Of a stretch of DNA of 64,000 bases, positions 1 through 64,000 are shown piece after piece. The DNA comes from Thermodesulfobacteriota bacterium (GTDB lineage Bacteria > Desulfobacterota_D > UBA1144 > Nemesobacterales > UBA2774). The first letter of the stretch is position 1. Each line of letters begins with the position of its first letter. The stretch covers positions 896,001-960,000 of the forward strand of contig OY729416.1 in NCBI GenBank assembly GCA_963422265.1. Reading direction: 5' to 3'. Position numbers and translations under genes: made by a program. The notes below the pieces were generated by a model. That model saw only the letters and a list, made by a program, of their open reading frames with translations. It had not been told where the DNA came from and searched no databases.

Positions 1-133
1 TCTATATCATCTACATCTCTATATCATCTAATACCACTCTATACGATAAACTATAATACAATAACACTAATTATTATACAATCTAATTGCTCCTACTTAA
101 TCCTACCTATCTAACACCTACCTAATAATACCA

Positions 134-163
134 CTTATAACAAATCCCATCACTCCTTGTCAA
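134..163 (-). promoter_or_regulatory. sigma70-type promoter firing toward the window start
   Basis: Minus strand reads TTGACA-18 nt-TATAAG with TG at the extended -10 position; an AGGAG lies downstream near 89-94. Confidence 0.6.
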
Positions 164-207
164 GAACTATTTGTTAAATTAAAAATGATCTTGGAATCTG
201 TAGTTGC

Positions 208-840
208 TCAGAATTTTATTAACTCCCTAAACGTGCCGAAAAGAATCTTCAAGTCCGTTATAAAACTCATTTCTGTTATGTACTTTTTACAGAACGCTAC
301 TTTTTGGGGAAGGATAATAGTATTGTGTGCATATTCTACGTCATCGTATCCCACAAGAATCTCTTCTTCGTTTCTATACATAAGCGAGGCGTAACCCGTA
401 ATGCCGGGTCTTATGCTTAGAATCAATGAATCATCACCCTGAAACTCATCTACAACCTTTTTTACCCATGGTCTTGGTCCTACAAGACTCATATCGCCTT
501 TAATAACGTTTAATATCTGGGGAATCTCGTCAAGTTTGTACTTCCTCAGTATCTTGCCAAGTGGCGTTACTCTCTTGTCATCGCTCGACGTTATGTAAGG
601 ACCTTTCTTGTCGGCATCTTTTATCATGCTTCTAAATTTATAGAACTTAAAGACCCTTCCCGATCTACCCACCCTTAACTGCGTAAATAGAACCGAACCC
701 TCGCTATCACACTTTATCAGGATAGAGATCAAAAGGATCAGAGGAGAGAGAATAATTAGCAAAGGCAAAGAGATAACCAAATCAAGTGCGCGCTTTCCCC
801 GCTTGGCGTAAAAACCCTCTTTAGTATCTTTTTTATTCAT
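208..840 (-). CDS. Priming sugar transferase (bacterial sugar transferase family)
   Basis: Motifs KRALDLV, FYKFRSM, LRKYKLDEIPQILNVIKGDMSLVGPRP, RPGITG. Confidence 0.93.
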   Translation of the reverse strand: MNKKDTKEGFYAKRGKRALDLVISLPLLIILSPLILLISILIKCDSEGSVLFTQLRVGRSGRVFKFYKFRSMIKDADKKGPYITSSDDKRVTPLGKILRKYKLDEIPQILNVIKGDMSLVGPRPWVKKVVDEFQGDDSLILSIRPGITGYASLMYRNEEEILVGYDDVEYAHNTIILPQKVAFCKKYITEMSFITDLKILFGTFRELIKF

Positions 841-1021
841 ATTAAAAAAGTCAGTAGCGTTGTCTCAGAAGATGGTCTTTGATACTTTACTCTCAATCCA
901 CATATAGATATTTCCTAACTCAACTTTCAGCAACATTTTGCGTTTCCCGTCAATCTCCTCTCTTAATCTCATATTATCACTATTTCAGCAACTGATTATA
1001 ATCGCACACCAGTCAGAGTCC

Positions 1022-1765: not shown

Positions 1766-1844
1766 TTTTTAACTTAGTGCTTAAAAGCCTTACGCCGCGG
1801 TTTCATGACAACTACTAACTCACTAACTTCCTTACTCCTAGTAG

Positions 1845-2369: not shown

Positions 2370-2647
2370 TTAATCTTTCCAATCGCTACTGATGCTAAAC
2401 ATAACACTTAAACTAATTCAATATCAAAAAAACAAGATAGACTGCGTAGATAATAACTTGCCACATTTGCTAAGTATTTTACGGAACAATAGTAGGTAGA
2501 TACTTAAGCCTCTTCTCCGACAAAACCATTACTGCTTCCCTAACATTTGCTTTCCTCGTTAATGGGATTATAATTAAATCATTTATATCATGGAATGCAA
2601 GAATTCCGAACTCAGAGAGCACGAGTCTATAGAAAAGCAGTTGCTTC

Positions 2648-4085: not shown

Positions 4086-4129
4086 AATTAGTGAACATGA
4101 CCTACCGTAACAACTTAGAGCAAGTCTTC

Positions 4130-14819: not shown

Positions 14820-17800
14820 TTATGCCGATTGTTCCTCTACGGAGGTAACAGTTGGAACCGGCACCTCAAGAACTGGCACCTCAACATCTATATTTCTATA
14901 AATCGGAAGCCCGGTTCCAGCAGGTATGAGCCTACCTATAATAACGTTTTCTTTAAGTCCCCTTAGATGATCTTTCTTACCCTCACATGCAGCTTCGGTT
15001 AGAATCTTTGTCGTTTCTTGGAAAGACGCCGCAGAGAGCCAACTTTCGGTACTTAGCGACGCCCTTGTAATGCCAACGAGGCGGGGCTCCGCAGATGCAG
15101 GTTTTCCACCTTGTTGAACAACCCTTTCATTCTCTTCAAAGAAATCACGTTTTTCCACAACTTCGGCAGCAAGTAGGGTAGTATCGCCCGGATCCTTTAC
15201 CTCTACCCTTTTAAGCATTTGCCTGACAATAACTTCTATGTGCTTATCATTCATTTTAACTCCCTGCAGCCTGTAAATCTCTTGAACCTCATCGACAAGG
15301 TAACGTATAAGGGCGCGCTCTCCACGTATCTTCAGAATATCGTGCGGATCTACAGAACCATCAACAAGCTGATCACCTGAATTGACCCATTCGCCATCTC
15401 TGACGAGTATGTGCCTACCCCTGGGAATTGAATATTTTTTTTCTTCGCCAATATCAGGAACAACGCTAACTCTCCTCTTTCCTTTGAGATCACCTCCATA
15501 CTTAACTATACCGTCAATCTCTGACACAACCGCTGGGTCCTTTGGCCTCCTGGCTTCAAAAAGCTCTGCCACCCTTGGAAGCCCCCCGGTGATATCCTTG
15601 GTCTTAGCTGTCGCTCTAGCAATTTTGGCGATAATATCACCGGCATTAACGGCATCGCCTTCATTCCTCTCTATTACAGCGCCTATCGGCAGTGAATAAA
15701 GTATGTTTCCCCCATCGCTCGTTCTAATAACAATTCTCGGATGTAGGTTCAAATCCGTAGATTCAATAACAACCTTTTTATAAATACCGGTAACCTCATC
15801 AACCTGCTCTTTCAGAGTTACGCCCTGCTCTAAATGTATAAACCCTATGGTGCCCTCAAACTCTGAAATGACAGGCGTCGTATAAGGATCCCATTCCGCA
15901 ATGATCTGCCCTTCTTTCACCTTTTCCCCATCTTTAACCCTCAACCTTGCTCCTAGCACTAGCGGACTCTTCTCCATTTCATAACCTTTTTCATCCACTA
16001 TTGCCAAAGCCCCTGCACGGTTAACTACAACTAGGTTCCCATCCTTGCCTCTCACCGTTCTTACGTTATTGAGCTTAATTACACCCTCGTGGGCACCCTT
16101 AAGCGTGCTCTCCGCAGCCCTCTGACTAGCAGCTCCACCTATATGGAAGGTTCTCATAGTAAGCTGCGTGCCTGGCTCGCCAATTGATTGGGCAGCGATA
16201 ATACCTACTGCTTCTCCAATGTTAACGAGCTTACCCGTAGCGAGATTCCTTCCATAGCACAAGGTGCACACGCCTACTTGCGCTTCACAAGTTAGAACGG
16301 ATCTGATCTTAATCTCAGCAATGCTACCAGCTTCGTCAATTGCAGAGCAGAACCTTTCATCTATTTCTTGGTTGGCACGAACTATGCACTCGCCACTAGC
16401 TGGATCAAGAACATCTTCTGACGCTACCCTTCCTAACACCCTTTCCGCCACTCTTGCTATTACGTCTCCACCGCTGTCCACTAAGCCACTAACCAAAATA
16501 CTTTCAACGGTGCCACAGTCGTATTCTTTTATCATAACATCTTGGGCAACGTCTATAAGCCTTCTTGTTAGATAACCCGCGTTCGCCGTTTTAAGCGCAG
16601 TGTCTGCCAGTCCTTTTCTCGCCCCATGGGTGGAAATAAAGTATTGAAGCACCGTCAATCCTTCACGAAAATTAGAGGTAATAGGGGTTTCTATAATCTC
16701 TCCCGATGGTTTAGCCATAAGCCCCCTCATCCCGGCGAGCTGACGAACCTGGTCCTTACTTCCCCTTGCCCCTGAATCAATCATCATATATATAGGGTTA
16801 GAACTGGCTCCCCTTTTAGTTTCTCCTTTGTCGTTCTTTGCTTCCTCAAAAGATATATCGCGCATCATTTCTTCAGCAACTTCAACGTTTGTCCTGGACC
16901 AAATATCTATAACCTTGTTATACCTCTCGCCATCTGTAATAAGTCCCTGTAGATACTGATTCTGTACCTTAACAACCTCATCACTCGCCCTTTGGAGAAG
17001 GTCCTTTTTCTTTTCAGGAATGCTCATATCGTTAATGGATATTGAGATGCCGGCTATTGTCGAGTACTTGAAACCCAAAGTTCTCATATTATCGGCAAGA
17101 AGAACCGTACTCTTGCCTCCAGCCATTCTAAAGCAGTTGTCAACAAGCTCTTCTATAGCCCTCTTTGTCATTGATCTGTTTACAAGCTCAAATGGTATAA
17201 CTTTAGGCATTATTTCGTAAAGTAGTACTCGCCCAGCCGTAGTATCATAAAGCTTGTCCTTTATGCAAACGCGAATCTTCGCATGTAACCCGATGTCACC
17301 TGAATCATAAGCCATCTGCACTTCCTCAATAGAGGAAAAGATTTTCCCGTCCCCCTTATCAACTGCCATGTCTCTGGTCATATAATAAATGCCAAGAACA
17401 ATATCCTGCGTAGGCAGTATTATAGGCTTTCCATGAGCTGGAGATAGTATATTATTAGTGGACATAACTAGAGCCCTACACTCGGTTTGAGCTTCTACTG
17501 ACAGAGGCACGTGGACGGCCATTTGATCGCCGTCAAAGTCGGCGTTGTAAGCGGGACATACCAAAGGGTGTATCTGAATAGCTTTGTCCTCAATAAGTAT
17601 AGGCTCAAAAGCCTGGATGCTAAGACGATGAAGCGTAGGAGCGCGGTTTAAGAGCACTGGATGCTCTTTAATCACTTCATCAAGCGCATCCCACACGACA
17701 GGATCCTCTTGTTCCACCAGTTTCTTTGCTATTTTTATAGTCGCGGCAGAACCCCACTGTTCAAGTTTCTGATATATAAACGGTCTGAACAACTCAAGTC

Positions 17801-18914
17801 CCATCTGTTTTGGAATACCACACTGGTGAAGTTTGAGATCAGGTCCGACCGTAATGACCGAGCGACCCGAGTAATCAACTCTTTTCCCCAGCAAGTTGTG
17901 CCTGAAACGTCCCTGTTTCCCTTTTATTATATCGCTAAGACTTTTAAGAGGTCTGCGGTTGTGCCCGAGCACGGGTCTTCCCCGTCGTCCATTCTCCAAA
18001 AGGGCATCTACTGATTCCTGAAGCATACGTTTTTCATTTCTTATAATAATATCAGGCGCCCCTAGCTCCAGCAGTTTTTTCAGCCGATTGTTCCTGTTAA
18101 TTACACGCCTATATAAATCATTTAGATCTGAAGTGGCGAACCTACCACCTTCGAGAGGCACAAGTGGTCTAAGATCCGGTGGAAGTACCGGAATATTGGT
18201 TAAAATCATCCATTCTGGACGATTCTTAGACCTCTTGAATGCTTCGCAAATTCTAAGCCGCTTTGCTATTCTAGCCCTTTTAATAGGGGAGGTAGTATTC
18301 TTCATTTCATGTCTTAACTGCTCAGAAAGCTCAGCAAGGTCTATCTTTTTAAGCATTTCCCTTATCGTCTCTGCACCCATTCCAACTTTGAAATCATGTC
18401 CATACTCTTCAATTGCCTTCCTATATTTATCTTCGCCTAATACTTCGGCAAACTCCAATGGAGAACTACCAGGATCAACAACTACGTATGATTCATAGTA
18501 AAGCACTTTTTCGAGATCCTTTAGCGTCATATCCAACAGCATTCCAATTCGGGATGGAATACTCCTCAGAAACCATATATGGGCTACAGGTGATGAAAGC
18601 TCAATATGCGCCATTCTATCTCTTCTAACCTTAGACGATATGACCTCCACTCCACATTTCTCACACGTTATTCCTCTATGCTTAAGTCTCTTATACTTTC
18701 CGCAGGTACACTCGTAGTCCTTTACCGGTCCGAATATTTTAGCACAGAACAAACCGCCCCTTTCAGGCTTAAATGTTCTATAATTGATAGTTTCAGGTTT
18801 TTTCACTTCTCCACTTGACCATTCTTTGATCTTTTCCGGAAAAGCAATTGAGATTTTTACGGCTGAGTAATCAGAAGGGTTTTTGGGTTTTTCAAAAAGG
18901 CTGTTTGCGTCCAC
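14820..18914 (-). CDS. rpoC: RNA polymerase beta' subunit (GTG start)
   Basis: [21 protein letters not shown] catalytic motif, SAASFQETT. Confidence 0.99.
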
Positions 18915-18943
18915 TCTTTATCTCCCTTATGCATATTAATTTA

Positions 18944-21900
18944 CTAATACATATCAACTTCACTCTCTTCTAGAAGCTCTACATCCAAAGCAAGTGCCTG
19001 TAGTTCCTTTTGCAAAACTCTGAATGATTCTGGAATACCAGGCTCAAAATTCATGTCACCTTTTACTATTGAATCAAATATTCTAGTCCTACCAATGACA
19101 TCATCCGATTTAACAGTAAGAAATTCCTGTAGGGTGTATGAAGCACCGTAAGCCTCAAGCGCCCATACCTCCATCTCACCCAGTCTCTGACCGCCGAAAT
19201 GAGCTTTGCCACCCAAGGGTTGTTGAGTAACAAGGGAATAAGGACCAATAGCTCTTGCGTGTATCTTTTCCTCAACCAGATGATGAAGCTTTAGCATATA
19301 CATAACGCCTACTGTAACTTTCTGATCAAACGGCTCGCCCGTCCGACCATCAAAAAGAATTGTCTTTCCATCCTCAGGCAGTTCAGCCTTGTTTAGCATC
19401 TCCTTTATATGCTGTTCTGTCGCACCATCAAACACCGCAGACTTAACTGGAATACCCCTGGCAAGCCTCCTAGCAACGTCAATAACCTCCTCATCATTCA
19501 ACTTGTCTATTAAGCCTCTTGCTGGTCCTTCGCCATATATGGAATTCAATTTTTCTCTTATTGCTTCGGGACCGAATTCTCTTTCAATAACCTCGTTTAT
19601 CTGGTTGCCCAACTCGTGCGCCGCCCATCCGAGATGGGTTTCCAACACTTGGCCAACGTTCATCCTAGATGGAACACCGAGGGGATTAAGTATCATATCG
19701 ACTGGCCTACCATTAGGAAGATAAGGCATATCCTCCTCAGAAAGAATTTTTGACACGACGCCCTTATTTCCGTGCCTCCCCGCCATTTTATCACCTACTT
19801 GCAGCTTTCTTTTAACGGCTATATTGACCTTCACAACTTTAAGAACCCCAGGAGGAAGCTCATCTGGTTTGATGAGCTTTTCCTTTCTACTATCGTAAAT
19901 AACGTTTGTTAAATCGATTTGCTCTAAAGTCCTTTCGGAAATCTTTTTTACCTCAGCCTCTACATGATCTCCTTTTTCTACCACGATATCCTCAAGCTTT
20001 TCAAAAGGCACGGACCGAAGAACCTTGAGCGCTTCTTCATCTATCTTGTCCCCCTTTTTGAGAACCGTTTTCCTAGATACAGTCAATTTTGCAGAAGCCG
20101 TTCTGTTAATTAACAGTGCCTTTATGCGCCCAAAAGCATCATCCCTCAATGTGTTAATTTCATCATTTTTATCCTGCTCCAATTGAGCTACTTCATTATT
20201 CTCAATGTCTTTAGCCCTTTCATCCTTATCAACCATTCTGGAAACTAGCATTTTTACGTCAATAACAGTGCCGTAAAGACCCGGAGTTGCTTTCAAAGAT
20301 GTATCCTTTACGTCTCCAGCCTTATCACCGAATATAGCCCTCAAGAGCCTCTCTTCAGGGGACAACTGGGTTTCGCCCTTAGGAGATATCTTGCCTACTA
20401 TTATATCTCCCGGCTTTACTTCGGCTCCTATTCTTATAATACCGCTATCATCTAAATTCCTGAGCGAATCTTCACTCACGTTCGGTATATCTTTGGTAAT
20501 CTCTTCTCGCCCGAGTTTTGTCTCACGAGCTATACACTCAACCTCTTCTACATGAATGGAGGTGAAGCTATCCTGCTTAGTAAGTCCTTCGCTTATAAGG
20601 ATCGCGTCTTCAAAGTTATAGCCTCCCCACGGCATAAATGCCACTAGTGCATTCTGTCCCAGGGCAAGCTCCCCATAATCAGTAGATGGTCCATCCGCTA
20701 TTACTTGACCAGTGCTAACGGGCTGCCCTCTTGAGACAATCGGTTTTTGGTTCCAGCATGTACTCTGATTAGATTTTTGAAACTTTATCAGATTATAAAT
20801 ATCAACCCCAGCGTCACCATCTGATACGCCGGCAGATGAACTGACAACTATTCTTGAGGAATCAACGTATTCCACCACTCCTCCCCTTTTCGCTATTACA
20901 GTTACTCCTGAATCCCTGGCCACCGTGCTTTCAAGGCCAGTTCCAACCAAAGGCGCGTGCGTGCTAACAAGGGGAACTGCCTGGCGCTGCATATTTGACC
21001 CCATAAGGGCGCGATTCGCATCATCGTGCTCTAGGAACGGTATTAACGACGCCGAGACGGAGACGAGTTGAGCAGGAGATATGTCCATAAGCTCTACCTT
21101 TTCACGATCAACCATAACAAATTCACCTGCGCTCCTGGCAGAGACAAATTCAGCAATAAAGCGACCGCGTTTATCAACAAGTGCATTTGCCTGTGCTATT
21201 ATATATTTCTCCTCTTCAAGCGCGCTCATATAGGTAATCTCGTCAGTCACTCTGGCATTCTTAACAACCCTGTAGGGAGTTTGGATAAAGCCATGTTCAC
21301 TAATTCTTCCATACGTACTAAGGCTTGAAATAAGCCCGATATTCGGACCCTCGGGCGTCTCGATCGGACATATTCTTCCATAGTGCGAAGAGTGCACGTC
21401 ACGAACTTCAAAACCTGCCCTCTCTCTTGTCAACCCCCCTGGACCCAAAGCGCTCAGCCTCCTTTTATGCGTTATCTCGGACAACGGGTTGGTTTGATCC
21501 ATAAATTGGGATAGCTGCCCGGTGGCAAAAAATTCCTTTACGGCAGCAATGACCGTCTTTGGAGCTAAAAGCTCGGTTGGCATAAGCGTCTCTACTTCCT
21601 GATATCCCATCTTCTCCTTTACAGAACGCGCTAACCTTTCAAGGCCGTGGTAAAATCGATCCTCTATTAGTTCCCCAACGGTTCGCACTCTTCTGTTGCC
21701 AAGATGGTCTATATCATCCGAAGTCCCCCTGCCCCCCCTAAGAGCAAGAAGATATTCAACTGTATTAACGATATCTTCCTTTGTGAGCGTTAATATCTCT
21801 TCAGAGACCCCATGATTTAGTTTATAATTCATTTTGAGCCTCCCCACAGGAGAAAGCCTATAGGTATCACGATTGAAGAACATATTCTTAAAAAACTCTT

Positions 21901-23068
21901 CTGCAATTCTTAACGTAGGCGGGTCCGTAGGGCGGAATTTTCTGTAAATCTCAGTTATGGCCTCCTCGCGGGTCTGCACCTTATCCGCAAGAACAGTATT
22001 CCGAAGAGAGGCAACTACAGATATATTGTCTATATAAAATAACCTCAAGTCAGTTATCCCACTTTCCTTAATCCGTTCGAGGTTTTCTTCGGTTATGATC
22101 TCGTTAAAACTGATAACAACCTCTCCGGTATTAGAATCTATAACGTCTTCGGCCGCGACCTTATCTATCAACTCGCTTGGATCAATCGCTATCCTACCTA
22201 CTTTAGCATCTCTCAATCTCTGGATTACTCTAGTAACAAATCTCCTTCCCTTTTTAACCAGGACGTTACCCGTTTTTGGATCAAGTATGTCGGCACTCGC
22301 CCTCTGGTAGGTTAGCACTTCCTGATTTATATCCTTGCTTACGCCAGATGAATCTAAATGAACGTTTTCTGCCAAATAAAAGCGCTCCATAATCTCTCTG
22401 TCGCTGTAACCAAGGGCTTTTAATAGCACGGTTGCCAGAAATTTTTTCTTTCTGTCTATTCTTACGTGTAGAAGATTCTTTGAATCAAATTCAAAATCTA
22501 TCCACCTGCCATCATGGGGAACGATCCTCGCAGAAAAAGAAGACCTGCCGGTGCTCGCATCCTTGCTTTTGATCTGATCAAAGAAAACTCCGGGAGAGCG
22601 ATGTAGTTGATTGACGATTACCCTCTCAGTCCCATTCACGATGAACGACCCGTTTGGAGTCATCAGAAGAATTTCACCAAAGTAAACTTCCTGTTCCTTT
22701 ACATCCCTTATAGTGCGATCTTCACCAGATTCGGTGTTTTCCCATATTACTAATCTGAAAGTTACGTAAAGGGGTGCTACATAGGTGTAGCCTTTTAATC
22801 TACACTCGACAGCCTCATACTTTGGCGTGCCCAATCTATAACTTATGTACTCTAGTGAGGCTTTCCCATTATTGTCTTTAATAGGAAACACCATATTAAA
22901 GGCATTGTGAAGACCAAAGTCAGCCCTATTCTCAGGATTTACATCTCTTTGGAGAAATTCATCATATGATTTTAGTTGTACGTCGAGCAGATGTGGTATT
23001 TCAAGAACCGAGGGTATTTTAGAAAAACTTTTCCTCAACTTATAAAATTCTAAACCTTCAAGGCTCAA
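18944..23068 (-). CDS. rpoB: RNA polymerase beta subunit (TTG start)
   Basis: [35 protein letters not shown]. Confidence 0.99.
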
Positions 23069-23283
23069 ATTAGGTTACCCCCCCAATGTGCGATATTGTC
23101 TATCATTCAAGCAGCTTCACGTCCGAACCCTCTTCCTTCAAAATAGAAGGACATACAACACCCAACTGAGTTTTTTGCTTAACTCACATCCAGATAAGGA
23201 CTCAAGAGTCGGAAAGTCGCGTAGCTGCGCGATCTTTTCAGAAGCATCAATAATTAATATCTGAATACAAAATTGAGACAGGC

Positions 23284-23679
23284 TTAATTAACTTCTACCT
23301 CAGCACCTGACTGTTCCACTTTCTTCTTAATTTCTTCAGCTTCTTTCTTGTCAATACCTTCTTTAATCGCTTTTGGGGCGCTCTCTACAAGCTCTTTGGC
23401 TTCTCTAAGACCGAGAGAAGTAACCTCTCTCACAGCTTTAATAACTTGAATCTTATTATCACCTATAGCTTTTAGAACTACATCAAATTCAGTTTTTTCT
23501 TCGGACTCACCGGAAGCATCGCCTACATCGCTAGCTCCAGGAACGGCAGATATTGCAACCTGCGGAGCTGCAGCTTTAACGTCAAATTTTTCCTCAATCT
23601 CTTTGATCAACTCTGATATCTCAAGCATATTCGCTTTCTCAAGATACGTGAGCACGTCCTCCCTAGTTGTTTCAGCCAT
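23284..23679 (-). CDS. rplL: 50S ribosomal protein L7/L12
   Basis: [31 protein letters not shown]. Confidence 0.98.
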
Positions 23680-23854
23680 TATAAACCTCCTTTGATATGC
23701 GTTTTCAAATATATTTTACAACCCCTTATGTAGCTACTTTTATTGTTTTGCTCCTCTTTGTCTCCCACATTTTACTCAAATCTTGCGATTCTGATACTCC
23801 TTGGTTTTTCTTCCACTTCTTGCTCCTACACAACATCTAGCAATTCCCTTTTGT

Positions 23855-24379
23855 TCATTTCCCCTCTTTGGACTCTTTAAGCGCACTCAAAGCATATAAT
23901 AGCTTGCTCTGAATCTGGAGGAGCTTACCACTGAGAGTAAACATCGGACTTGATATAGCACCCACCAACTGGGCAATCATCTCATGTCTCGAAGGCAGCT
24001 TGGAAAGCTCTGAAATCCGATTAGAATCAACAATTTTACCGCTAATGATGCCTCCTTTGATTTCTAGGTGAGACAACCCCTTTGCGGTATTAACAAAAAC
24101 CTTAGCAACGGGCGAAGGATCATTTTTACAAATCGCGACCGCTGTCGGACCTACGAACAAGGTGCTTATCTTTTCAATTTCCGTGTTTTCAGCAGCGAGT
24201 CTAAGTAAAGTGTTTTTAACGACCTTCAGCTCCGCGTCAGCCGCTCGCAAGTCTCGCCTGAGCTTCTCCATCTCCCTTACGGTAAGCCCCTGATAACCAA
24301 CAACCATAATGGAAGAACTAACTTTAAAAGCTTGACCAAACTTTTCAACTACATCCTGCTTAGCTGCTCTATTTAACAT
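23855..24379 (-). CDS. rplJ: 50S ribosomal protein L10
   Basis: YQGLTV, VVKNTLL, GPTAVA, LSKLPSR; conserved position in operon. Confidence 0.96.
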   Translation of the reverse strand: MLNRAAKQDVVEKFGQAFKVSSSIMVVGYQGLTVREMEKLRRDLRAADAELKVVKNTLLRLAAENTEIEKISTLFVGPTAVAICKNDPSPVAKVFVNTAKGLSHLEIKGGIISGKIVDSNRISELSKLPSRHEMIAQLVGAISSPMFTLSGKLLQIQSKLLYALSALKESKEGK

Positions 24380-24437
24380 TCAGGGCTCCTTAAGCTTAGT
24401 AAATTGCCGCTTCTAACACACTTCTATATCAAGTATA

Positions 24438-25163
24438 TCAAGCAGCGATCCGAAAATTCTTAAGCTCTTCGCGAATACTAACGGTATCGACCCTTATCCC
24501 AGGACCCATCGTATTGGCTATCGTAATTCTTCTTATAAATGCCCCTTTTGAAGACGCGGGCTTCATCTTAATCAGTAAGTCCATGAAGACAAGGAGGTTG
24601 TCCCTTAGCTTGTCAAAGCCAAAAGAAACCTTGCCTATTGGTGCGTGTACTACGCCTCCTTTGTCATTCCTGACCTCTATTCTTCCTGCCTTGGCTTCCT
24701 TTACGGCTTGCGACACTTCTGATGTAACAGTGCCAACTTTGGGGCTAGGCATAAGACCTCTTGGACCAAGAACTCTGCCTAACCTCGCAACTTTACTCAT
24801 AACGTCGGGCGTTGCAATAGCAACGTCAAACTCAAGCCAATTGTCGTTCATAATTTTCTCTATCAAATCCTGCAAACCTAAGTAATCTGCCCCTGCATTC
24901 TTGGCTTCAGTTAACTTATCGTCCTTAACAAAAGCCAAAACCCTAACGTCTTTTCCTATACCATGAGGTAGAATCATGCCCGCCCTAATCTGCTGATTAG
25001 CCTGTCTCGGATCAATTCCAAGCTTGACGGAGACTTCAACCGTCTCATCAAACTTGGCACTTTTAGTCCTTTCAATGAGCTTAATAGCGTCATTTAACGT
25101 GTAACTAGTTTTTGCATCTACTATTTCTACAACTTGCTCGTATCTTTTTCCTCTCTTAGACAT
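24438..25163 (-). CDS. rplA: 50S ribosomal protein L1
   Basis: KFDETVEV, LGRVLGPRGLMPSPKVGTV, TMGPG. Confidence 0.98.
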   Translation of the reverse strand: MSKRGKRYEQVVEIVDAKTSYTLNDAIKLIERTKSAKFDETVEVSVKLGIDPRQANQQIRAGMILPHGIGKDVRVLAFVKDDKLTEAKNAGADYLGLQDLIEKIMNDNWLEFDVAIATPDVMSKVARLGRVLGPRGLMPSPKVGTVTSEVSQAVKEAKAGRIEVRNDKGGVVHAPIGKVSFGFDKLRDNLLVFMDLLIKMKPASSKGAFIRRITIANTMGPGIRVDTVSIREELKNFRIAA

Positions 25164-25198
25164 TAACCTAGTCTCCTAAATACAATAAGCTCTACACG

Positions 25199-25615
25199 TC
25201 ACTCGACGTCAATTCCCATACTTCTAGCTGTGCCAGAAACAATGTTCAAGGCTGCCTGCATATCATCAGTATTCAAATCAGGGAGTTTGGTCTTAGCTAT
25301 TTCCTCAACCTGAGCCCTTGACACCTTACCAGCCTTTACCTTTGGAACTTCCCCGGAACCTTTATCAACCTTCGCAGCCTTTTTCAGCAAATAAGAAACC
25401 GGAGGGGTCTTAACAACAAAAGAAAACGACCTGTCGGCATAAACCGTCACCGTCACTGGCAGCAACCCTTCCATCTTAGAAGTCTGGCCGTTAAACGCCT
25501 TACAGAACTCCATTATGTTCACGCCACGCTGTCCCAAAGCGGGACCTACCGGGGGAGAAGGAGTAGCCTTGCCAGCTTCTACCAAGAGTTTTATATAACC
25601 GTTTATTTTTTTCAC
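25199..25615 (-). CDS. rplK: 50S ribosomal protein L11 (GTG start)
   Basis: [31 protein letters not shown]. Confidence 0.98.
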
Positions 25616-25616
25616 T

Positions 25617-26174
25617 TTAAATCTTCTCCACTAGATTAAAATCCAACTCTATAGGGGTTGCCCTACCAAAAATCGTAACAAGAACCTGAACCGTCGCTTT
25701 ATCCGGCCTCACTTCTTCAATAACACCAGAAAAATTTGCAAAAGGACCCTCAGTAACCTTCACAGTTTCACCTTTTTCGAATATAATCTTCGGCTTTGGC
25801 TTTAACGTGCCTTCTTCTATCTGCCTCTTTATCTTTTCAACTTCATCCTCTCTGATGTCAGGAACCGAATCGGGATCAATCTTACCATCCTTAAGTTTAC
25901 CACCTACAAAACCTATGACTTTAGGAATATCTCTAATAAAATGCCAACTCTCATCGTTGAGATCCATTCTAATCAGCACGTAACCAGGAAAAAACTTTCT
26001 AACCGATGTCTTCTTTTTCCCACCCTTTATCGGCTCTACTATAGTCTCGGTAGGAACGAGCACCTCATGGACCTGATTCCTAAAGTCCCCAGATCTCATT
26101 CCTTCCTCAATATAGCTCTTGACCCTATTCTCAAATCCTGTGTTAGTATGTACTACGTACCACCTGTCAGCCAT
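25617..26174 (-). CDS. nusG: Transcription factor NusG
   Basis: WYVVHT, FPGYVLI, KOW motif [18 protein letters not shown]. Confidence 0.97.
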
Positions 26175-26682: not shown

Positions 26683-27867
26683 CTATTCTACGATACTAGT
26701 AACGACTCCTGCACCTACAGTCCTTCCACCTTCCCTGATCGCAAAACGCAACTGCTCCTCCATCGCTACAGCAGATATTAACTCCACGTCCATGTTCACG
26801 TTATCACCAGGCATCACCATCTCTACACCCGCAGGTAACACTATAGAACCCGTTACATCCGTTGTCCGTAAATAAAACTGAGGCCTATACCCAGGAAAAA
26901 ATGGCGTGTGTCGTCCACCCTCCTCCTTCCGCAATACATATACCTCCGCCTTAAACTTCCGATGTGGACTTATACTACCAGGCCTCGCCAATACCTGCCC
27001 TCGCTCTACCTCATCCTTATCCACCCCGCGTAACAATACCCCTACGTTATCTCCAGCTATCGCCTCGTCCAGTATCTTACGAAACATCTCTAAACTAGTC
27101 GCTACCGTCTTGCGCGTCTCCCTAAATCCCACTACCTCCACCTCAGCTCCACCCACTACCCTACCACGTTCCACCCTACCCGTTACTACCGTCCCACGAC
27201 CAGATATCGTAAATACATCCTCTATCGCCATCAAATAAGGCTTGTCCATCTCACGCTCCGGCTCAGGTACATATCCATCTACCGCCCCCATCAACTCCAG
27301 CACCTGCCCCTCAGAACCCGCATCCCCATCCAATGCCTTTAACGCACTCACACGAACCACAGGAACCTCATCCCCAGGAAATCCATACTCACTCAATAAC
27401 TCCCGAACCTCTAACTCCACTAAATCCAATAACTCCTCATCATCCATCATGTCCACCTTGTTTAACGCTACCACTATATATGGCACCCCTACCTGCCGCG
27501 CCAATAGTATATGCTCCCGCGTCTGTGGCATCGGACCATCAGGCGCACTTACCACCAATACCGCTCCATCCATCTGCGCCGCTCCCGTTATCATGTTCTT
27601 TACATAATCCGCATGACCAGGACAATCCACATGCGCATAATGCCGCCCCTCTGTCTCATACTCCACATGTGCTATGTTTATCGTTATACCTCGCTCCTTC
27701 TCCTCAGGCGCCTTGTCTATCTCCCCAAACTCCACATACTCCGCACGCCCCGCCTTCCCCAATACCTTCGTTATCGCAGCCGTCAACGTCGTCTTCCCAT
27801 GATCCACGTGCCCTATCGTCCCTATGTTTAAATGAGGCTTCCCTCGCTCAAATCTAGCCTTACTCAT
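26683..27867 (-). CDS. tuf: Elongation factor Tu
   Basis: [38 protein letters not shown]; start set to MSKARFER. Confidence 0.99.
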
Positions 27868-27940
27868 TATACTCCCCCCCATACATTCTTAGTTTTATAA
27901 CCTAAGCTTAAGTTTTTATAATCCAAAATACTATATGCTA

Positions 27941-28013
27941 AGCCCACGGGCGGACTCGAACCGCCGACCTCATCCTTACCAAGGATGTGCTCTGCCGACT
28001 GAGCTACGTGGGC
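27941..28013 (-). tRNA. tRNA-Thr(GGT)
   Basis: GCCCACGTAGCTCAG...CATCC TTGGTAA GGATG...GGTTCGAGTCC...GTGGGCT. Confidence 0.95.
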
Positions 28014-28026
28014 AAAGCGACAAGTA

Positions 28027-28100
28027 AGCGGGAGACGGGACTCGAACCCGCGACCCTCAGCTTGGAAGGCTGATGCTCTAGCCAACTGAGCTACTCCCGC
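28027..28100 (-). tRNA. tRNA-Gly(TCC)
   Basis: GCGGGAGTAGCTCAG...CCTTCCAAG...GGTTCGAGTCCC...TCCCGCT. Confidence 0.95.
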
Positions 28101-28167
28101 ACCCAAAACTTTAAGGAAACTAACGAGAATATATAAAATTCCCTTCAAACCTTCACCTTGCCAAATG

Positions 28168-28250
28168 TGGGGAGGGCAGGATTCGAACCTACGTAGGCTT
28201 GCACCGGCAGATTTACAGTCTGCTGCTTTTGACCACTCAGCCACCTCCCC
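28168..28250 (-). tRNA. tRNA-Tyr(GTA), long variable arm
   Basis: GGGGAGGTGGCTGAGTGG...GCAGACTGTAAATCTGC...GGTTCGAATCC...CCTCCCCA. Confidence 0.95.
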
Positions 28251-28316
28251 CGGTACTTTATGGATACACGCCTAATATACACACCTGTCCAAAAGCTTAA
28301 CATGCTCCTTTGATAA

Positions 28317-28388
28317 AGCTGGCGAAGGGATTTGAACCCCCGGCCTGCTGATTACAAATCAGCTGCTCTACCACTGAGCTACGCCAGC
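28317..28388 (-). tRNA. tRNA-Thr(TGT)
   Basis: GCTGGCGTAGCTCAGTGGTAGAGC...GATTTGTAATC...GGTTCAAATCC...CGCCAGCT. Confidence 0.95.
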
Positions 28389-28521
28389 TATCTAAACTTT
28401 ATTGCATTCATATTTATTATATTCACAATAAGAAACCACAACCCACCCTTATACACATGCTCGTAAGCAGACATCTTATAATAAATTAGATAAATTTCGC
28501 TTGCTCACATAAAAGTTTAGT

Positions 28522-52027: not shown

Positions 52028-54015
52028 CTAGGAGCTTGGATTCGCAGCAATGCTAAGAACGTCAGTGGTTGCCCTAGACCAAGCATTGCCATCATCTTTA
52101 TCCGTGTAGTAAACGTAAGCGCGCAGATACTTGCCCACGTCCCCTTGCCCTTGCACAGGTGTATATGCGTCACTAGCCCCTTCGGGAAATACGTATTCAC
52201 AGTTAGTTGACATCTCCGCGTCATCACAACGCTCCCACCGCCAGTAACTGCGATGCACCGGAGTATTTACAGAATCCCCACGATTACCAGCATCCCAATC
52301 ACCATCATTTACCTCTACCCGTATTACTTGTCCAACCCGCGGAGAAGTATGACCTGAATGAAAAACAGCAGCTGACGCGCTGGTATCAGTGGACGTTCTG
52401 TTTGCTTTTGCCCTTATCACTATGGCATTAGTGTAAACCTTTTCTTCCTTACCATTGTCCACAATCGTCACGTATGCCCTTAGAAAATAATTCGCATCTC
52501 CAGATTCCGGGATAAGTAGGTAGCTTCTATTGTTATTTGCTAGACTTCTACTAGAAATGTCCTCCCAGCCACTAACGCCGTTAGGTGAACGTTCCCATTT
52601 CCAATTCCCTGCACCGTCTCCATTACTACTAGCCTTGCGTTTACCCCTCAGGTTCCCAATCAGCCCAACTGTTACAGGCTCGCCCACTATTGCGGAATTC
52701 CAATGGTCAGGATGAATAAATGCTCTGCGTTGCCCCGGCACACCCTTTATTGTCGGATACTGACGCGACCCACCAAAGTCCCATGGGTCATCTATATTCC
52801 AACCCGCATAAATCCCATCGTAGTCTTTGTAGTCTTTAGGTATTTGAAGATCTCGCGTGGTCTTACCTAGAACACTTGTATTTATATGATCCCCGCGGTA
52901 GCCTTCCATGGAAGTTGATATATCCCAGTATGCTCTATTTATTCTAGGAGACCAATAACCAGGCGCCTCTACCCCAATCAGCCCACCGCGACTTCCTGCC
53001 GTCCTCCTTACCCTGCCGATAGAGTAAACGGAATCTATGATACCCTCTGAAACCCCTCCGACCAGCCCACCAACACGGTATCCCCCTTGCGCGCTACCGG
53101 TGGCATAGGCGACTTGGATGGTGGCGCGCCGGGAGAACCCAACCAGCCCACCAACAACACCTCCCCCTCGCACATTGGCTGTGGAGTAGCTTTTAGTAAT
53201 TTTACCTTTGCTAAGGTTTTGGCCAACTAACCCCCCTAGCCTAATGACTAGAGCACCTTTCGCCACCCCAGTTTGCTTTACTTCACCAGTAACATAGCAA
53301 CTAGTTATAGTTCCCTCGTTCCTCCCAGCCAGCCCACCGATCTCGGAGCTATTATATTTGTTGTTAATATGTTGAGTTATCTTGACGTTTTTCAAGCCCA
53401 AGTTTTGCACTTTACCTAAGGTGCCCACTATGCCGAATAGCCCTAAGTTGAGAGTTCTTGTGGTCTCGATCGGCGTAGTAAAGTTGATGAATAGATTAGA
53501 GATAGTATTTCCGTTGCCCTCGAAGGTCGCGTTAAAATGGCTACGGCTAGAAAAGATGGGTATCCAGCCACGGCCGCCGTTCCAATAAGTAGGATCACCC
53601 GTTTCTGTAATAGTACCATCGTCGTCCTCGTCAAAGTCTAAGTCTGTGGTCAGTTCATAGCCAATGCATCCGGAAGAGGGGCAACCCATAGAGGCTTATG
53701 CGTCGGGGAAGGCAGTAGTGTAGGACGCGCTATTACTAGAACTATCTACCTGTCCATCTCCGTCTAGGTCCCAGCGAATAGCGTTGAGTTGAGCAAGGTT
53801 AGATATTTCTATAAGTTGGTCATCATCAGTGTCGTAGTCAGTAGTAGTTTGGGCGAGTGCAGTATGCGAGAAGAGAGCAGATAAAGCAAAGAAGACTGTA
53901 GATAGTATAGGTGTTAATAGAGAATAAGGTTTCTCATATCGTGGAAAATGGGGGGGGGGGGGGGGGGGGGGGTAGAAGAGATGGTTAGTTTATTGATAAC
54001 AAAGCTATGTTTCAT
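52028..54015 (-). pseudogene. Secreted GLUG-repeat / Ig-like surface protein, out of frame at a poly-C tract and carrying an in-frame TAA
   Basis: RBS AAGGAGG and ATG at 54015; C23 tract; +1 frame gives signal peptide ...FALSALFSHTALA-QTTTDYDTDDDQLIEISNLAQLNAIRWDLDGDG...FPDA*ASMGCPSSGC, joining the 553-aa ORF with GGLVG repeats and two Ig-like modules. Confidence 0.82.
53950..53972. repeat. G23 homopolymer (C23 on the coding strand)
   Basis: Counted directly. Confidence 0.9.
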
Positions 54016-60001: not shown

Positions 60002-60086
60002 AGATTCTAACTATGAACGTTGATTAAACTGGGTTAATATATTTTCAAAACCTAAACCTTTAAGCGAGAACTTCGGAGGCTTAACA

Positions 60087-60653: not shown

Positions 60654-61150
60654 TTGTCCGGAGAAAAGCTTGGTTAGTAATAAGCGGTCACAGTATCCCT
60701 TATCACTAAACACTTGATAAGGCGTTTTAATTACTTGCGTATATACAGAAAGTCTGCCGAAGATGCTTTTAATCTCCTCTTAAACTCCAATTAGTCCTCA
60801 ATTAGTGACGTCATATTTACCACCCAAGAGCGCTTAAATTATTATGAGGACCTGCCTCATAGAGACGTGGTTACCACGTTAAAGAAAAGAGATAAAAAGG
60901 ATAGAAAATGAATAGAAAAGTTAAAGAAAAGTGCCGAGAAAGTAACAGAAAAAGATGGAAAATGAAAGAGAATAGCTAGTTCTAACAGCTTTTAATACCA
61001 GTAATCCACTCCGCCTAAACTCCCCCAGATTGTCATGATAAACTTGTTTAAGACTATCCCCTCCCGTCATTACCAACTTACCCATCATTCCCAGCTCGAC
61101 TAGGAATCCAGATAGAGCATCGGGGGACACGAGAGTTCATTCCCTACACA

Positions 61151-61189
61151 ATCCCCCCTTTTGTAAAGGGGGGATATAGCGGGGGATTT
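61151..61189 (-). repeat. Palindromic REP-like element, copy 2 (inverted relative to copy 1)
   Basis: Minus strand AAATCCCCCGCTATATCCCCCCTTTACAAAAGGGGGGAT. Confidence 0.75.
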
Positions 61190-61259
61190 AATCTTTATTC
61201 TTTTAATCATAGCACATCACTCAATCCTAAAAATTACAGTTCAGACTTTCTTCTCCCCC

Positions 61260-64000
61260 CTACAATAACAGCTTCCACCATAATAGTATTCCGTGATCCA
61301 CAACTCCACTAGAAACCTCTCGACGCTCCCCCTCCAAACTTATATCCATCCACTCTCCTACACCTACCTTGCCACCCAACCTATACTCGCGCTCCCCCTC
61401 CCCCATAATAGATATGCCACTGTATGGCGTTACAAGCCACCCACTACCTCGCGTCTCCATACCATATCCAACATCAAACTTCACACGCCCAGAAGATAAA
61501 CCCCGCTTCCCTACTCCTAACCCACTCTCTACCTCACCTCGCCACATTCGCTCTACTCCACTCGCTACCTCTCCCCACTCAGGCTCAAACATCAACCACA
61601 ATCCACGTCCCCGAACCCCATCACCCATCCGCAATGAAAAACTACCTCCCCAATCCTCAAACTCAGACTCCTCATGAAACAACAAATACCTCCCTCGAAC
61701 CTCCACGCTCAAACCCAAACCTCTATGAACATACTCTATACCTCCGCCTACCTCCATACCTACTCCACTATCCGCATCTCCGCCGTCCCATCGCCCCCCT
61801 ATCTCCACACTTGGTAGCAACAAAGAATCTCCTGTCACATACACGTCACGGCTCATCTCTAAACCTAATCGCAAACGACGCGCTACTCCACTAACACCAG
61901 AAAGACCTTCCACCCCCTCTGTCTTTAACTGCACTGCAAAACCATCACTCTTTAACCCAAAATCTATATCTCCCCATCTAGCCAACTCCTGCCGCACTCC
62001 CAACGCTACCATCAGCATATTTACGTCCGCCTCCACTTCTCCTGCTGCATCTTTCAACTCTACCTCACCTATTCCACCCCCTACCAAACCCCATATACTA
62101 AGACCAGGACGTATAGTGTAGTGCGCATATGGAAGAACGCTTGTCAACTCCAAATCTACCTCCCCTCGGATACTACCTGTCTCTCCACTCATAAGATAAA
62201 AGCTACCATCCACCTCATACTCCACCTCTCCAACACTACGAGATATCGCTACGCCCGCCAAACCCCTATTACCAAACCTATAGTCCAATCCCATGTAGCC
62301 CGTATACAACTCACCCTCTGTATCTATATCTCCATCCAAATTACTACCAGAAAATCCACTACCCGCACCACTGCCCCATAACGTCCACCCTCGCATCACT
62401 CCCCCCATATCATCACCACTACTACTCAAAGGAATAGAAAATTCGCTCTGCGCAAACAAATCCCTCCCAGAAACACGCCGTAACTCAACAGGCTCTAGAT
62501 CTAAACCCTCCAACAATTCAATATCTGAACCACCACTCAGACCCAACACCCCATCCACAGCTCCTGCCACAGAACGAGTGTCAAACGATGTCATAGAAAC
62601 ACCACCCAATGTCAATTTAGGACTACCTGCCAGAGAAGAAGAAGAAACAAAACGTTCACCTATTACGTCCACCGCTCCGGTTGCAGCTGCCCGTCCAAAA
62701 GAAGCTAACACTACAGAAAGAACACGCGCTCGCTCCTTTTCCTCGGCTGCACGAACCGTTATGCTAAATGACAACTCACTTGTATCGCCATCTACGTCCT
62801 CAGCCTTGTAGGTGAACTTCGTCTTAGCTAACGCCTCAGTCGGCTTGCCAGTGATAGCGCGAGGAGAATCATCATTAAACTTAAGATCCAATGGTAGAGA
62901 CGGTCTCAGACTGTAGGTAATAACACCGTCACCACCAGTAGCCTCAGGTAGAACAACATCAACAACTTCCACACCAACCGTCCAGACATAGTCCCCAATG
63001 GATTCTGAACCGAAAGTCGGCTTTGGCGAACCCAATACAAAAGTAGAAAAACTACTCGTTTTACCGCATACATAACCGCTGGGCACCGATGCAGGCGACG
63101 GCAGCTTCCTCCACCCCGCACCTTCTACATCGGCAAGATGATATACCGATAGATTACCTGACAGCTCTTCGGGCTCCTCCAGACAGACGATGGCACTTGA
63201 TGATGACGAGAGCTCCACGTCCAGATCTATATCCACGTAAGACGGTTTACCCCCAAAGCTCACGCCCGACGGCTCAGTAACAGTGGGCGCCGCCGGTGAA
63301 AACTCAATCTCCGTCACGCCGTGTCCAGATGGCAGCGTCAGCTTCACAGCCGTCTCGTCAACCGTTGCCGTGATGATGCTGCGACCACCGTCCTCTACTA
63401 CATCAATAATCGTGCCAGAGTCAGCACCGCTGATGTTAATCACCTTCGCAGTGGCAGTCGAGGTAAGAGATTCCGATGCCCCACCAGCGTCCGTCCAACT
63501 CACTACTACTGTGATCACAGAACCTACGTCCGCCTGTGTCAGAACGTAGGTGCTAGTAGTGGCGCCGCTGATGTCAGTCCCGCCTCGCTTCCATTGATAG
63601 CTGAACGTCAGATTACTCGGACCGTCTGGGTCAACAATCGTGCCGGTATCCGCGGTCAGTGTCTGGCCCTGGGTCGCCGTCCCCGTAATGGTTACCGCAC
63701 CAGTCGGCGAGTCGTTTACGTTCGCTACACTTGCTGTAGCAGCAGAGGTCAGAGATTCCACTGTACTACCGCTGTCCGTCCAACTCACTACTACTGTGAT
63801 CACAGAACCGACGTCCGCCTGTGTCATAATGTAGGTGCTACTGGTCGCCCCGTTGATATCAGTCCCGCCTCGCTTCCATTGATAGCTGAACGTCAGACTG
63901 CTCGGACCGTCTGGATCAACGATCGTGCCGGTATCCGCTGTAAGCGTCTGCCCCTGGGTTGCCGTCCCCGTAATGGTTACCGCACCAGTCGGCAAGTCGT
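61260..64000 (-). CDS. Autotransporter/adhesin, 5' end outside the window: tandem Ig-like repeats, putative Ig domain, C-terminal beta-barrel
   Basis: Frame open to the window edge; 95-aa repeats; LPEATGGDG..YSL..LP..L.F Ig-type module; barrel with WTLWG, GYMGLDY, RWDGGDA, VTPY. Confidence 0.85.
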   Translation of the reverse strand, partial: DLPTGAVTITGTATQGQTLTADTGTIVDPDGPSSLTFSYQWKRGGTDINGATSSTYIMTQADVGSVITVVVSWTDSGSTVESLTSAATASVANVNDSPTGAVTITGTATQGQTLTADTGTIVDPDGPSNLTFSYQWKRGGTDISGATTSTYVLTQADVGSVITVVVSWTDAGGASESLTSTATAKVINISGADSGTIIDVVEDGGRSIITATVDETAVKLTLPSGHGVTEIEFSPAAPTVTEPSGVSFGGKPSYVDIDLDVELSSSSSAIVCLEEPEELSGNLSVYHLADVEGAGWRKLPSPASVPSGYVCGKTSSFSTFVLGSPKPTFGSESIGDYVWTVGVEVVDVVLPEATGGDGVITYSLRPSLPLDLKFNDDSPRAITGKPTEALAKTKFTYKAEDVDGDTSELSFSITVRAAEEKERARVLSVVLASFGRAAATGAVDVIGERFVSSSSLAGSPKLTLGGVSMTSFDTRSVAGAVDGVLGLSGGSDIELLEGLDLEPVELRRVSGRDLFAQSEFSIPLSSSGDDMGGVMRGWTLWGSGAGSGFSGSNLDGDIDTEGELYTGYMGLDYRFGNRGLAGVAISRSVGEVEYEVDGSFYLMSGETGSIRGEVDLELTSVLPYAHYTIRPGLSIWGLVGGGIGEVELKDAAGEVEADVNMLMVALGVRQELARWGDIDFGLKSDGFAVQLKTEGVEGLSGVSGVARRLRLGLEMSRDVYVTGDSLLLPSVEIGGRWDGGDADSGVGMEVGGGIEYVHRGLGLSVEVRGRYLLFHEESEFEDWGGSFSLRMGDGVRGRGLWLMFEPEWGEVASGVERMWRGEVESGLGVGKRGLSSGRVKFDVGYGMETRGSGWLVTPYSGISIMGEGEREYRLGGKVGVGEWMDISLEGERREVSSGVVDHGILLWWKLLL
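63440..64000 (-). repeat. 285-bp tandem coding repeat (at least 2 copies)
   Basis: GTTACCGCACCAGTCGGC at 63691 and 63976; peptide PTGAVTITGTATQGQTLTADTGTIVDPDG occurs twice. Confidence 0.92.

Follow-up and report, generated by a model that had tools for sequence, protein, structure and literature searches.

Why are a few units of a bacterial genome written in a language that shuns cytosine on the sense strand, when the genes beside them are not? The question arises from a single-contig genome of a Thermodesulfobacteriota bacterium (contig OY729416.1; 1,783,595 bp, GC content 0.441), and in particular from bases 896001-960000, a stretch of 64,000 nucleotides (nt) referred to below as the window. 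Three segments of the window carry the trait: the leader of a duplicated operon, a copy of tuf, which encodes EF-Tu, and the C-terminal module of a large surface-protein gene. The tentative answer developed here, which falls somewhat short of probable, is a fixation bias that acts strand-specifically on transcripts from genes amplified for dosage, with edges sharpened by gene conversion.

The C-poor units form a discrete class and not the tail of a distribution. Open reading frames (ORFs) were called crudely, taking the longest frames down to 80 codons and discarding overlaps greedily (n = 1552), and a codon log-likelihood was trained on tuf and groEL against all ORFs. Sixteen of the 1552 score +0.41 to +0.63, the next ORF reaches 0.04, and the bulk median is -0.76. 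These 16 are eight genes in two copies each, namely tuf, groEL and six operon genes, which match, in Pfam, two acetoacetate-decarboxylase-family proteins, a thiolase, a DUF35-type OB fold, a MaoC dehydratase and an AmiS/UreI channel. The same composition is found in groES and in the last ~450 codons of five surface-protein genes (1107-2113 codons). A strand-specific scan recovered 45 stretches of at least 300 nt with an absolute GC skew of at least 0.5, and every one longer than 1 kb lies within twelve class places (tuf x2, groESL x2, the operon x2 and the surface-protein modules x5). All twelve are repeats, as the first-pass annotation of the window had proposed for its outlier segments. For comparison, the GC skew of 1-kb windows has a genome-wide standard deviation of 0.15, and third-position skew on the coding strand averages +0.07 (standard deviation 0.18; 1552 ORFs).

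The class has a codon dialect of its own. Its sense strand contains 10-13% C and 36-40% G. At four-fold sites C drops to 0.01-0.05, against 0.22 in all ORFs, and G stands at 0.28-0.51 against 0.24 (0.42-0.51 in tuf, groEL and the operon, 0.28-0.35 in groES and the module). T does not rise in parallel, at 0.21-0.33 against 0.29 (0.21-0.24 and 0.30-0.33 in the same two groups). In tuf itself, C makes up 12.8% and G 38.6% of the sense strand, C occupies 1% of four-fold sites, and the third-position skew is +0.82, compared with +0.74 in groEL and +0.87 in the thiolase gene. The codon shift that had been reported as common to the skewed coding segments is borne out: G-ending codons supply 0.87-0.95 of Lys, Glu and Gln (all ORFs 0.48), and TTR supplies 0.67-0.93 of Leu (0.32). 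It goes beyond the earlier list, with ATA at 0.75-0.97 of Ile (0.45), ACG and GCG favoured, and CGN preferred over AGR at 0.64-0.82 of Arg (groES 0.20; all ORFs 0.35). Relative to bulk, the dinucleotides TC and CC fall to 0.51 and 0.39, and GC and AC to 0.92 and 0.70.

Scored against all windows of the same length genome-wide, the three G-poor plus-strand segments are extreme. The leader at 1-158 has just 2 G among its 158 nt (skew -0.91, z -4.4; equally extreme windows 0.003%), tuf has a skew of -0.50 (z -3.4; 0.5%), and 61260-62700 has a skew of -0.60 (z -4.1; 0.08%). Their G-poverty therefore stands, but they are not the unrelated segments they had been taken for, since 1-158 is the leader of a duplicated operon. 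A fourth segment, 53700-54015, had been described as a mirror image (skew +0.43, z 2.4). Of its 103 G, 23 come from a homopolymer, and once the run is removed z falls to 1.8, 6% of windows are equally extreme, and the segment is no longer a convincing outlier. The boundaries, all described as sharp, are so for tuf, where the change lies within 4 nt of the coding sequence, while the surface-protein module shifts over about 100-200 nt near 62,600.

C-depletion is not limited to codons; non-coding transcribed parts share it, and in the operon it runs from the -35 hexamer to the terminator. Where co-directional intergenic DNA would predict 87 C, five untranslated pieces of class units (466 nt in all) contain 19 (P = 3e-21). 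Unit B of the two-unit operon, the two acetoacetate-decarboxylase-family genes, ends 51 nt to the left of the window, and the sense strand of its leader holds 2 C in 158 nt. Depletion starts at a -35-like TTGACA at 158-163, and the duplicated block ends at 181. At the far end of the operon, C reappears in the 3' arm of the terminator hairpin, and 66 C-free nt were seen by eye beyond the internal terminator. The operon promoter and terminator are consensus matches and not mapped transcript ends. C-poor leaders as a general trait were rejected, as the upstream regions of 527 genes contain 15-20% C. The operon leader has a predicted folding z of -2.25, and Rfam yielded no family in it or in four smaller C-poor stretches.

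The polarity of the skew tracks the sense strand on both replichores and not the replication strand. By cumulative skew, replication starts near 1.58 Mb and ends near 0.50 Mb; two plus-strand members, groESL at 1.435 Mb and a module at 1.046 Mb, are skewed against their local replichore.

Near-identical dispersed copies, whose identity breaks off sharply where homology ends, bear the marks of gene conversion. Over their 1200 bp the two copies of tuf are 100% identical (the one outside the window lies at genome 802237-803436), both sit in canonical contexts, and the recoded tract is exactly the tract homologous between them. The operon blocks are 99.5% and 99.9% identical; block A differs by ~5 substitutions and one indel, and block B has its second copy at genome 1299022-1301452, with 100% identity over 2424 aligned nt. 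The groESL copies are 99.4% identical, with 4 substitutions before a divergent 3' end, and the five surface-protein modules show 88-99% identity. One operon locus is taken as ancestral, since the gene upstream of it conforms to the synteny of relatives, and that gene, 53 nt away, is bulk-like; at the second locus, two single-copy genes are intermediate (log-likelihood -0.09 and -0.17). An assembly artefact was rejected, since contigs from four public runs reproduce tuf with 0-17 differing letters in ~1.1 kb. In the same four runs the depth of the tuf contig is ~2x that of its flanks.

These repeats invite a mutational explanation, in which multi-copy, highly transcribed DNA would repeatedly become single-stranded, through gene conversion or recombination tied to transcription, and strand-specific damage, through deamination or error-prone repair, would be fixed in the copies by conversion. 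Several features fit: every skewed place above 1 kb is a repeat, identity within the pairs is 99.4-100%, skew and homology cover the same tract in tuf, groESL and the ancestral operon locus, non-coding DNA within the units is affected too, usually highly expressed single-copy genes are spared, and C loss is strongest in YC contexts (TC, CC). The greater divergence of tuf among strains, about 1.8x that of its flanks, points the same way. The base changes themselves do not. The composition had been read as C>T plus A>G on one strand, but at four-fold sites C gives way mainly to G or, more broadly, purine, T falls in tuf, groEL and the operon, and the Arg shift from AGR to CGN adds C. The proposal that repeats as such are the target also fails on the repeats that show no skew: a 2-kb dispersed repeat with 97% identity (restriction-modification-like gene), a 561-bp repeat with 98.8%, and the passenger repeats of surface-protein genes with 90-94%. 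Duplicated tuf, groEL and thiolase operons of relatives are likewise unskewed, so duplication is not a sufficient cause, and the skew boundary of the module falls within homologous sequence, while the single-copy neighbours of the operon are partly skewed. PF00383, the single deaminase family searched, gave no unusual deaminase: it retrieved only two genes of the cytidine-deaminase fold, and the sizes of their open frames, 163 and 381 aa, suggest housekeeping enzymes.

Recent changes add to this picture. Singletons could be polarised in four close module paralogs (n = 31; the fifth, whose branch is not polarisable, was left out), and they comprise G>A 11, G>T 6, T>A 4, C>T 3, T>C 2 and A>T 2, with A>G, C>A and C>G once each. 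G was lost 17 times and gained twice, and C>T, at 0.026 per C, about equals G>A, at 0.021 per G. In this small sample, which covers modules only, the changes look like ordinary strand-symmetric GC>AT mutation, and the G-richness of the module is therefore not a mutational equilibrium. The ongoing strand-asymmetric process that the first-pass annotation envisaged finds no echo here, and the damage explanation, which predicts an excess of C>T over G>A and of A>G over T>C, appears rather unlikely overall.

Nucleotide pressure reaches the protein level, as the class changes amino acids. The thiolase carries 32 unique replacements, against 3-15 in same-family relatives, with a net change at codon positions 1-2 of -13 C and +20 G. 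For tuf the corresponding figures are 21 against 4-12 replacements, with -3 C and +10 G. Replacements are often of the C>G type (A>G, T>S, Q>E, H>D and P>A in amino acids), and groEL is little affected. Among strains, 9 of the 10 best-supported differences in tuf are silent and fall at third codon positions, 6 of the 10 are transversions, and most are exchanges between A, G and T; where the reference tuf has CGC, at two codons, other strains have CGA or CGT.

Comparison with relatives shows where the recoding is found. Up to 30 genomes of Candidatus Dadabacteria (18 of the same family and 12 of the same order) were examined for tuf, groEL, the thiolase locus and the module. Only in this lineage are groESL, the operon and the module recoded, while tuf avoids C in five others as well. 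Strong C-avoidance in tuf (third-position skew of at least 0.63) occurs in 6 of 18 full-length genes, from this genome and G019, G020, G023, G025 and G030, which belong to six families. More broadly, tuf departs from fusA, rpsJ, rplC, rplD, nusG or rplK in 12 of the 12 relatives with scored flanks, with third-position purines at 0.57-0.75 against about 0.5 in the flanks. By comparison, groEL at 27 loci in 21 relatives shows third-position skews of -0.11 to +0.54 and a log-likelihood of at most 0.05; five of these genomes (G003, G006, G012, G018 and G030) have two copies, none of them recoded. The thiolase locus (20 loci in 19 relatives, with a partial locus and this genome's own second copy set aside) ranges from -0.30 to +0.25, including the duplicated pair of G003. 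A homologue of the module occurs in 1 of 30 relatives, with 36% identity and a skew of 0.30. Because orthologues in relatives, tuf excepted, are unrecoded, the recoding is lineage-specific and duplication alone does not produce skew. The duplication of tuf (in most relatives), groEL and thiolase (in G003) without recoding fits a demand for gene dosage rather than duplication as the cause.

The discrete dialect and its sharp edges could also suggest horizontal replacement, with an unsampled dialect-using donor whose genes were spread by conversion and are now ameliorating. The module fits this idea: its paralogs lose G, as amelioration predicts, homologues are found in a single relative, and the passenger parts attached to it look foreign. 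The core genes tell otherwise. The groEL protein is 86-91% identical to those of same-family relatives and 78-83% to those of other families, and EF-Tu is 80-90% identical to relatives' proteins, the nearest, at 90%, being from a same-family genome; both tuf copies keep canonical contexts. The thiolase is 81-85% identical to relatives' proteins, and a search of 5.8 billion proteins gave no donor-like near-identical match among those listed: at least 120 best matches fall at 83-87% identity, and the named ones among them belong to Candidatus Dadabacteria and one Thermodesulfobacteriota. The CGN preference is not common to the other five C-avoiding tuf genes (0.04-0.53, against 0.71 in this tuf), and one donor would have to account for four functionally unrelated gene sets. 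Such a replacement seems quite improbable.

A further possibility is ordinary translational selection, under which the dialect would represent the optimal codons of the lineage, visible only in the most heavily translated genes. Both tuf and groEL are classic members of high-bias sets, tuf favours purine-ending codons, ATA, AAG/GAG and ACG in 17 of 17 full-length relatives, the shift from AGR to CGN acts at the level of codons and not of composition, and every tRNA with C34 needed for G-ending codons is present. However, leaders and spacers are equally C-poor, and amino-acid replacements track base composition. Ribosomal-protein genes, fusA, tsf and rpoB/C lack the dialect shift (the large ribosomal-protein cluster and fusA were assigned by position and size, the window genes by Pfam). 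Ribosomal-protein genes, rpoB/C and fusA have lost some C and gained T (four-fold T 0.35-0.46), with fewer purine-ending four-fold codons and more AGR, and so do not lie between bulk and class. The single-copy controls in the window, rpoC-nusG, have bulk-like usage that favours T-ending codons and AGR for Arg. The 45 tRNA genes (43 anticodons) are single-copy per anticodon except for three with CAT, and a single tRNA copy per anticodon is typical of organisms with weak translational selection. Motifs resembling the Shine-Dalgarno sequence are enriched in the class, and surface-protein mRNA is only partly affected. Translational selection by itself is thus an unlikely explanation.

The preferred reading, a fixation bias on transcripts, would work as follows. 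Selection would act on the transcript, with C disfavoured throughout the RNA, in codons, leaders and spacers alike, and purine-ending codons would be favoured in the class as they are for tuf across the order. The bias would fall on a few dosage-amplified and presumably top-expressed units. Gene conversion would then spread the recoded copy and produce sharp edges at homology boundaries, as between tuf and fusA or between the operon and its upstream gene. On this reading, we infer that class members are the most highly expressed units and that the bias is selection.

Several observations weigh against it. Genes that are usually highly expressed and single-copy are bulk-like, with log-likelihoods of -0.90 for dnaK, -0.88 for tsf, -0.84 for csp and -0.68 to -1.04 for three HU genes, so expression alone does not define the class. 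The presumed ribosomal-protein cluster (25 ORFs, -0.36 to -0.99) and fusA (-0.65) also lie outside it, ribosomal proteins shift in the opposite direction at four-fold sites and for Arg, and fusA and tuf, 26 nt apart, differ wholly in composition. In the surface-protein genes only the 3' module of a shared mRNA is affected, and the skew edge lies inside the region homologous between paralogs. In run X6, tuf differs at 17 of 1122 nt and its flanks at 105 of 12,716 (~1.8x), a divergence not predicted by strong purifying selection on particular codons. The Shine-Dalgarno-like GGAGG occurs at 6.2 per kb in class genes and 1.2 per kb in all genes, and this ~5-fold enrichment argues against simple optimisation of elongation. 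Since every long class member is multi-copy, gene conversion could also be causal and not only a spreader. Confidence remains tentative because single-copy genes expected to be highly expressed are unaffected, surface-protein mRNA is partly recoded, and the expression levels are something we infer.

What might disfavour C in RNA? Candidates are escape from Rho loading, escape from another C-dependent factor that binds or cleaves RNA, and a need to keep transcripts from pairing with G-rich RNAs that are abundant. Rho depends on RNA that is rich in C and poor in G, and the composition of the class hints at escape from Rho or another C-dependent RNA factor. The presence of Rho in 30 of 31 genomes searched, including those without the trait, is uninformative, and predicted mRNA folding is a further point against selection on the transcript: typical genes fold at -0.21 kcal/mol per nt, and the class is only slightly weaker than GC-matched genes. 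Unstructured mRNA is accordingly a weak candidate at best (class -0.19 to -0.23 kcal/mol per nt, GC-matched -0.24 +/- 0.03). Among other candidates, a single avoided motif, such as the site of a toxin RNase, was rejected for 2- and 3-mers, none of which is absent (the rarest, CCC, occurs 3 times in 8.9 kb). G-quadruplexes were set aside with 0 G3-type motifs in the class, and loss of CTP synthase with pyrG present. A retro-element origin was likewise rejected, as the only RVT_1 gene belongs to an AbiP2-type defence reverse transcriptase (PADLOC E 8.5e-200); the duplicated operon block includes its promoter and is therefore not a cDNA copy.

A bolder version of selection on the transcript would make the units programmed, "insulated" messages, stripped of C (especially YC) to evade a C-dependent RNA-recognising factor, with conversion between deliberately kept duplicates maintaining the recoding. 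We regard it as unlikely. If it were true, the insulated set (EF-Tu, GroES/EL, a core catabolic operon and the membrane-anchoring modules of the surface proteins) would still be made when translation stalls. The factor evaded might be Rho as it loads onto uncoupled RNA, or else a toxin RNase with sequence specificity.

Separately, the RNA-binding domain of Rho was scored in 30 genomes. The six lowest scores belong to G020, G023, G025, G029, G030 and this genome, five of which have a C-avoiding tuf. They span 103.7-110.2 bits, against 110.0-113.1 in the rest, a small difference, confounded with phylogeny and evolutionary rate, that serves as a lead and not as evidence.

The pattern partly resembles several known systems. 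Purine loading of mRNA-synonymous strands (Szybalski's rule) was reportedly described by Lao and Forsdyke in 2000. Both purine loading and the reported avoidance of mRNA:non-coding RNA pairing (PMC5028192) share with the class a purine-rich, C-poor sense strand that includes codons and untranslated parts and is independent of replication. The present case is not a genome-wide tendency: it concerns about 12 extreme segments in one lineage, and conserved proteins are changed. Transcription-associated asymmetry, through deamination of non-template C and transcription-coupled repair, is said to have been reported in 1996 by Beletskii and Bhagwat and by Francino and Ochman. Here too the sense strand loses C and the operon zone begins at the promoter, but T is not raised, no recent excess of C>T is seen, other genes of presumably high transcription are spared, and the tuf tract ends at homology boundaries within operons.

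Codon bias of highly expressed bacterial genes, reportedly established by Ikemura and by Sharp, likewise makes tuf and groEL extreme and is synonymous; in this genome, however, ribosomal-protein and translation genes are excluded, non-coding sequence is included, and the bias is bimodal and not graded. Concerted evolution of duplicated tuf by gene conversion is said to have been described by Abdulkarim and Hughes in 1996. The copies here are identical over exactly the coding region and lie in different operons, as in that case, yet conversion explains identity and edges and not composition, and the converted tuf pairs of relatives lack C-avoidance. Vertebrate mitochondrial DNA, the analogy drawn in the first-pass annotation, depletes one base at four-fold sites about as strongly, but its asymmetry is a replication-linked gradient with T and G raised on the exposed strand, whereas the pattern here is local and unit-bound, with T not raised. 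The literature titles and abstract openings screened gave no account of such a pattern in Dadabacteria.

Bacterial codon bias and strand-specific composition usually vary by degrees across whole genomes, while this genome holds two sharply separated "languages". The rarer dialect spans coding and non-coding parts of a few duplicated core units and has altered residues of EF-Tu and of a conserved thiolase. If it reflects selection on RNA composition, it offers an unusually clean natural case for asking what benefit C-free messages bring; if it is mutational, it would be a new mutagenic process linked to recombination or transcription. Such segments can also mislead the detection of horizontal transfer, binning and codon-based prediction of expression in uncultured lineages.

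Table. Features of the window with their positions in it, their strand and the basis of each assignment.
Feature	Position	Strand	Basis
Promoter and C-poor 5' leader of operon unit B	1..181	-	second genomic copy, composition
rpoC, rpoB, rplL, rplJ, rplA, rplK, nusG (single-copy controls)	14820..26174	-	Pfam, codon metrics
tuf copy 2 (EF-Tu), class member	26683..27882	-	Pfam GTP_EFTU and domains 2 and 3
Spacer separating tRNA-Thr from tuf, C-poor (4 C among 58 sense-strand nt)	27883..27940	-	composition
tRNA-Thr(GGT), Gly(TCC), Tyr(GTA), Thr(TGT) upstream of tuf, not class	27941..28389	-	
5' module of GLUG-motif surface-protein gene, not class	53696..54015	-	paralogs, composition
C-terminal module of 2074-aa surface protein, class member	61260..62610	-	composition, four paralogous modules elsewhere
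Passenger part of 2074-aa surface-protein gene, not class	62611..64000 (on to genome 963481)	-	

The four tRNA genes 5' of tuf represent the usual tufB-type context. Among the tRNA genes of the genome, ARAGORN called a tRNA-Pro with anticodon AGG beside GGG, CGG and TGG; bacteria seldom have a proline tRNA with A34, and this may be a miscall.

The surface-protein genes combine several compositions. Per 150 nt, the module at 61260-62610 contains 7-13% C and 35-45% G; the change comes ~450 codons before the stop, and paralog homology extends several hundred codons further. The module had been called an autotransporter barrel, which finds weak support: PF03797, the 12-stranded beta-barrel domain that follows a linker helix in type Va autotransporters, matches it with E 3e-5 and 24.3 bits, below the cut-off of 26, over profile positions 1-103 of 255, and NCBIfam gave no match. 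AlphaFold2 models one helix followed by long beta strands, at low confidence (mean pLDDT 46), and the module is probably a linker with an autotransporter-like beta domain. The passenger of the 2074-aa protein carries immunoglobulin-like repeats (IG_AIR9). Across the five genes the passenger parts use a third dialect (TTC 0.67, ATC 0.65, ACC 0.47, GAC 0.70, CTG 0.56) with a GC content of 0.54-0.58 (0.56 at window 62611-64000), and their C-rich third positions are neither bulk-like nor C-poor. Since this dialect differs from that of the C-poor module, the surface-protein genes are compositional chimeras.

The GLUG-motif gene shares the C-rich third-position usage of the passenger parts in its 5' module, which has paralogs at genome 134938-135369 (96%) and 1637126-1637573 (79%). 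Because this 5' module is not a compositional outlier, the suggestion that oppositely skewed modules serve as homology arms of exchanged cassettes loses its footing. The 23-nt homopolymer (G on the plus strand) occupies 53950-53972, in the part of the gene that codes for the N-terminus; a TAA stop in frame at 53696-53698 comes just ahead of the 553-aa ORF. Past the run the frame meets a stop, and a change of +/-1 in run length would join it to a signal-peptide-like frame. The sequence suggests a contingency gene, either phase-variable or in decay. Comparable G/C runs occur at genome 997271-997301, 871299-871323 and 1040420-1040445, the last upstream of a giant surface-protein gene.

A defence cluster (L090; genome 1034000-1041000) lies ~1.4 kb upstream of the surface-protein gene at 1040600. 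Besides the AbiP2-type reverse transcriptase, 504 aa long, it encodes a DUF1828/DUF1829 protein (PDC-M24B) and one whose match to a PIN domain stays below threshold. Elsewhere, a phage-like region (genome 2000-20000) lies just upstream of the surface-protein gene that diverges most among the five, and it encodes a 1895-aa protein resembling, by eye from its translation, a tape-measure protein. Genes of this region are mildly shifted towards the class dialect (-0.25 to -0.36, one ORF +0.04).

Among the repeats, a ~1060-aa gene at genome 617070-620947 and 1108459-1111635 has its first 2 kb duplicated at 97% identity and unskewed, and one copy adjoins a MazE/MazF-like pair, recognised by eye from the translations. 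This gene provides the plainest case of an unskewed dispersed repeat. The operon leader carries short direct repeats, TAGGTAGG and AGATGATATAGA. Promoter-like TTGA...TGATGGG...TATAAT-like hexamers are common to several C-poor leaders and intergenic stretches, with such elements at window 1-163 and at genome 271751-272280, 957000-957259 and 1507571-1507930.

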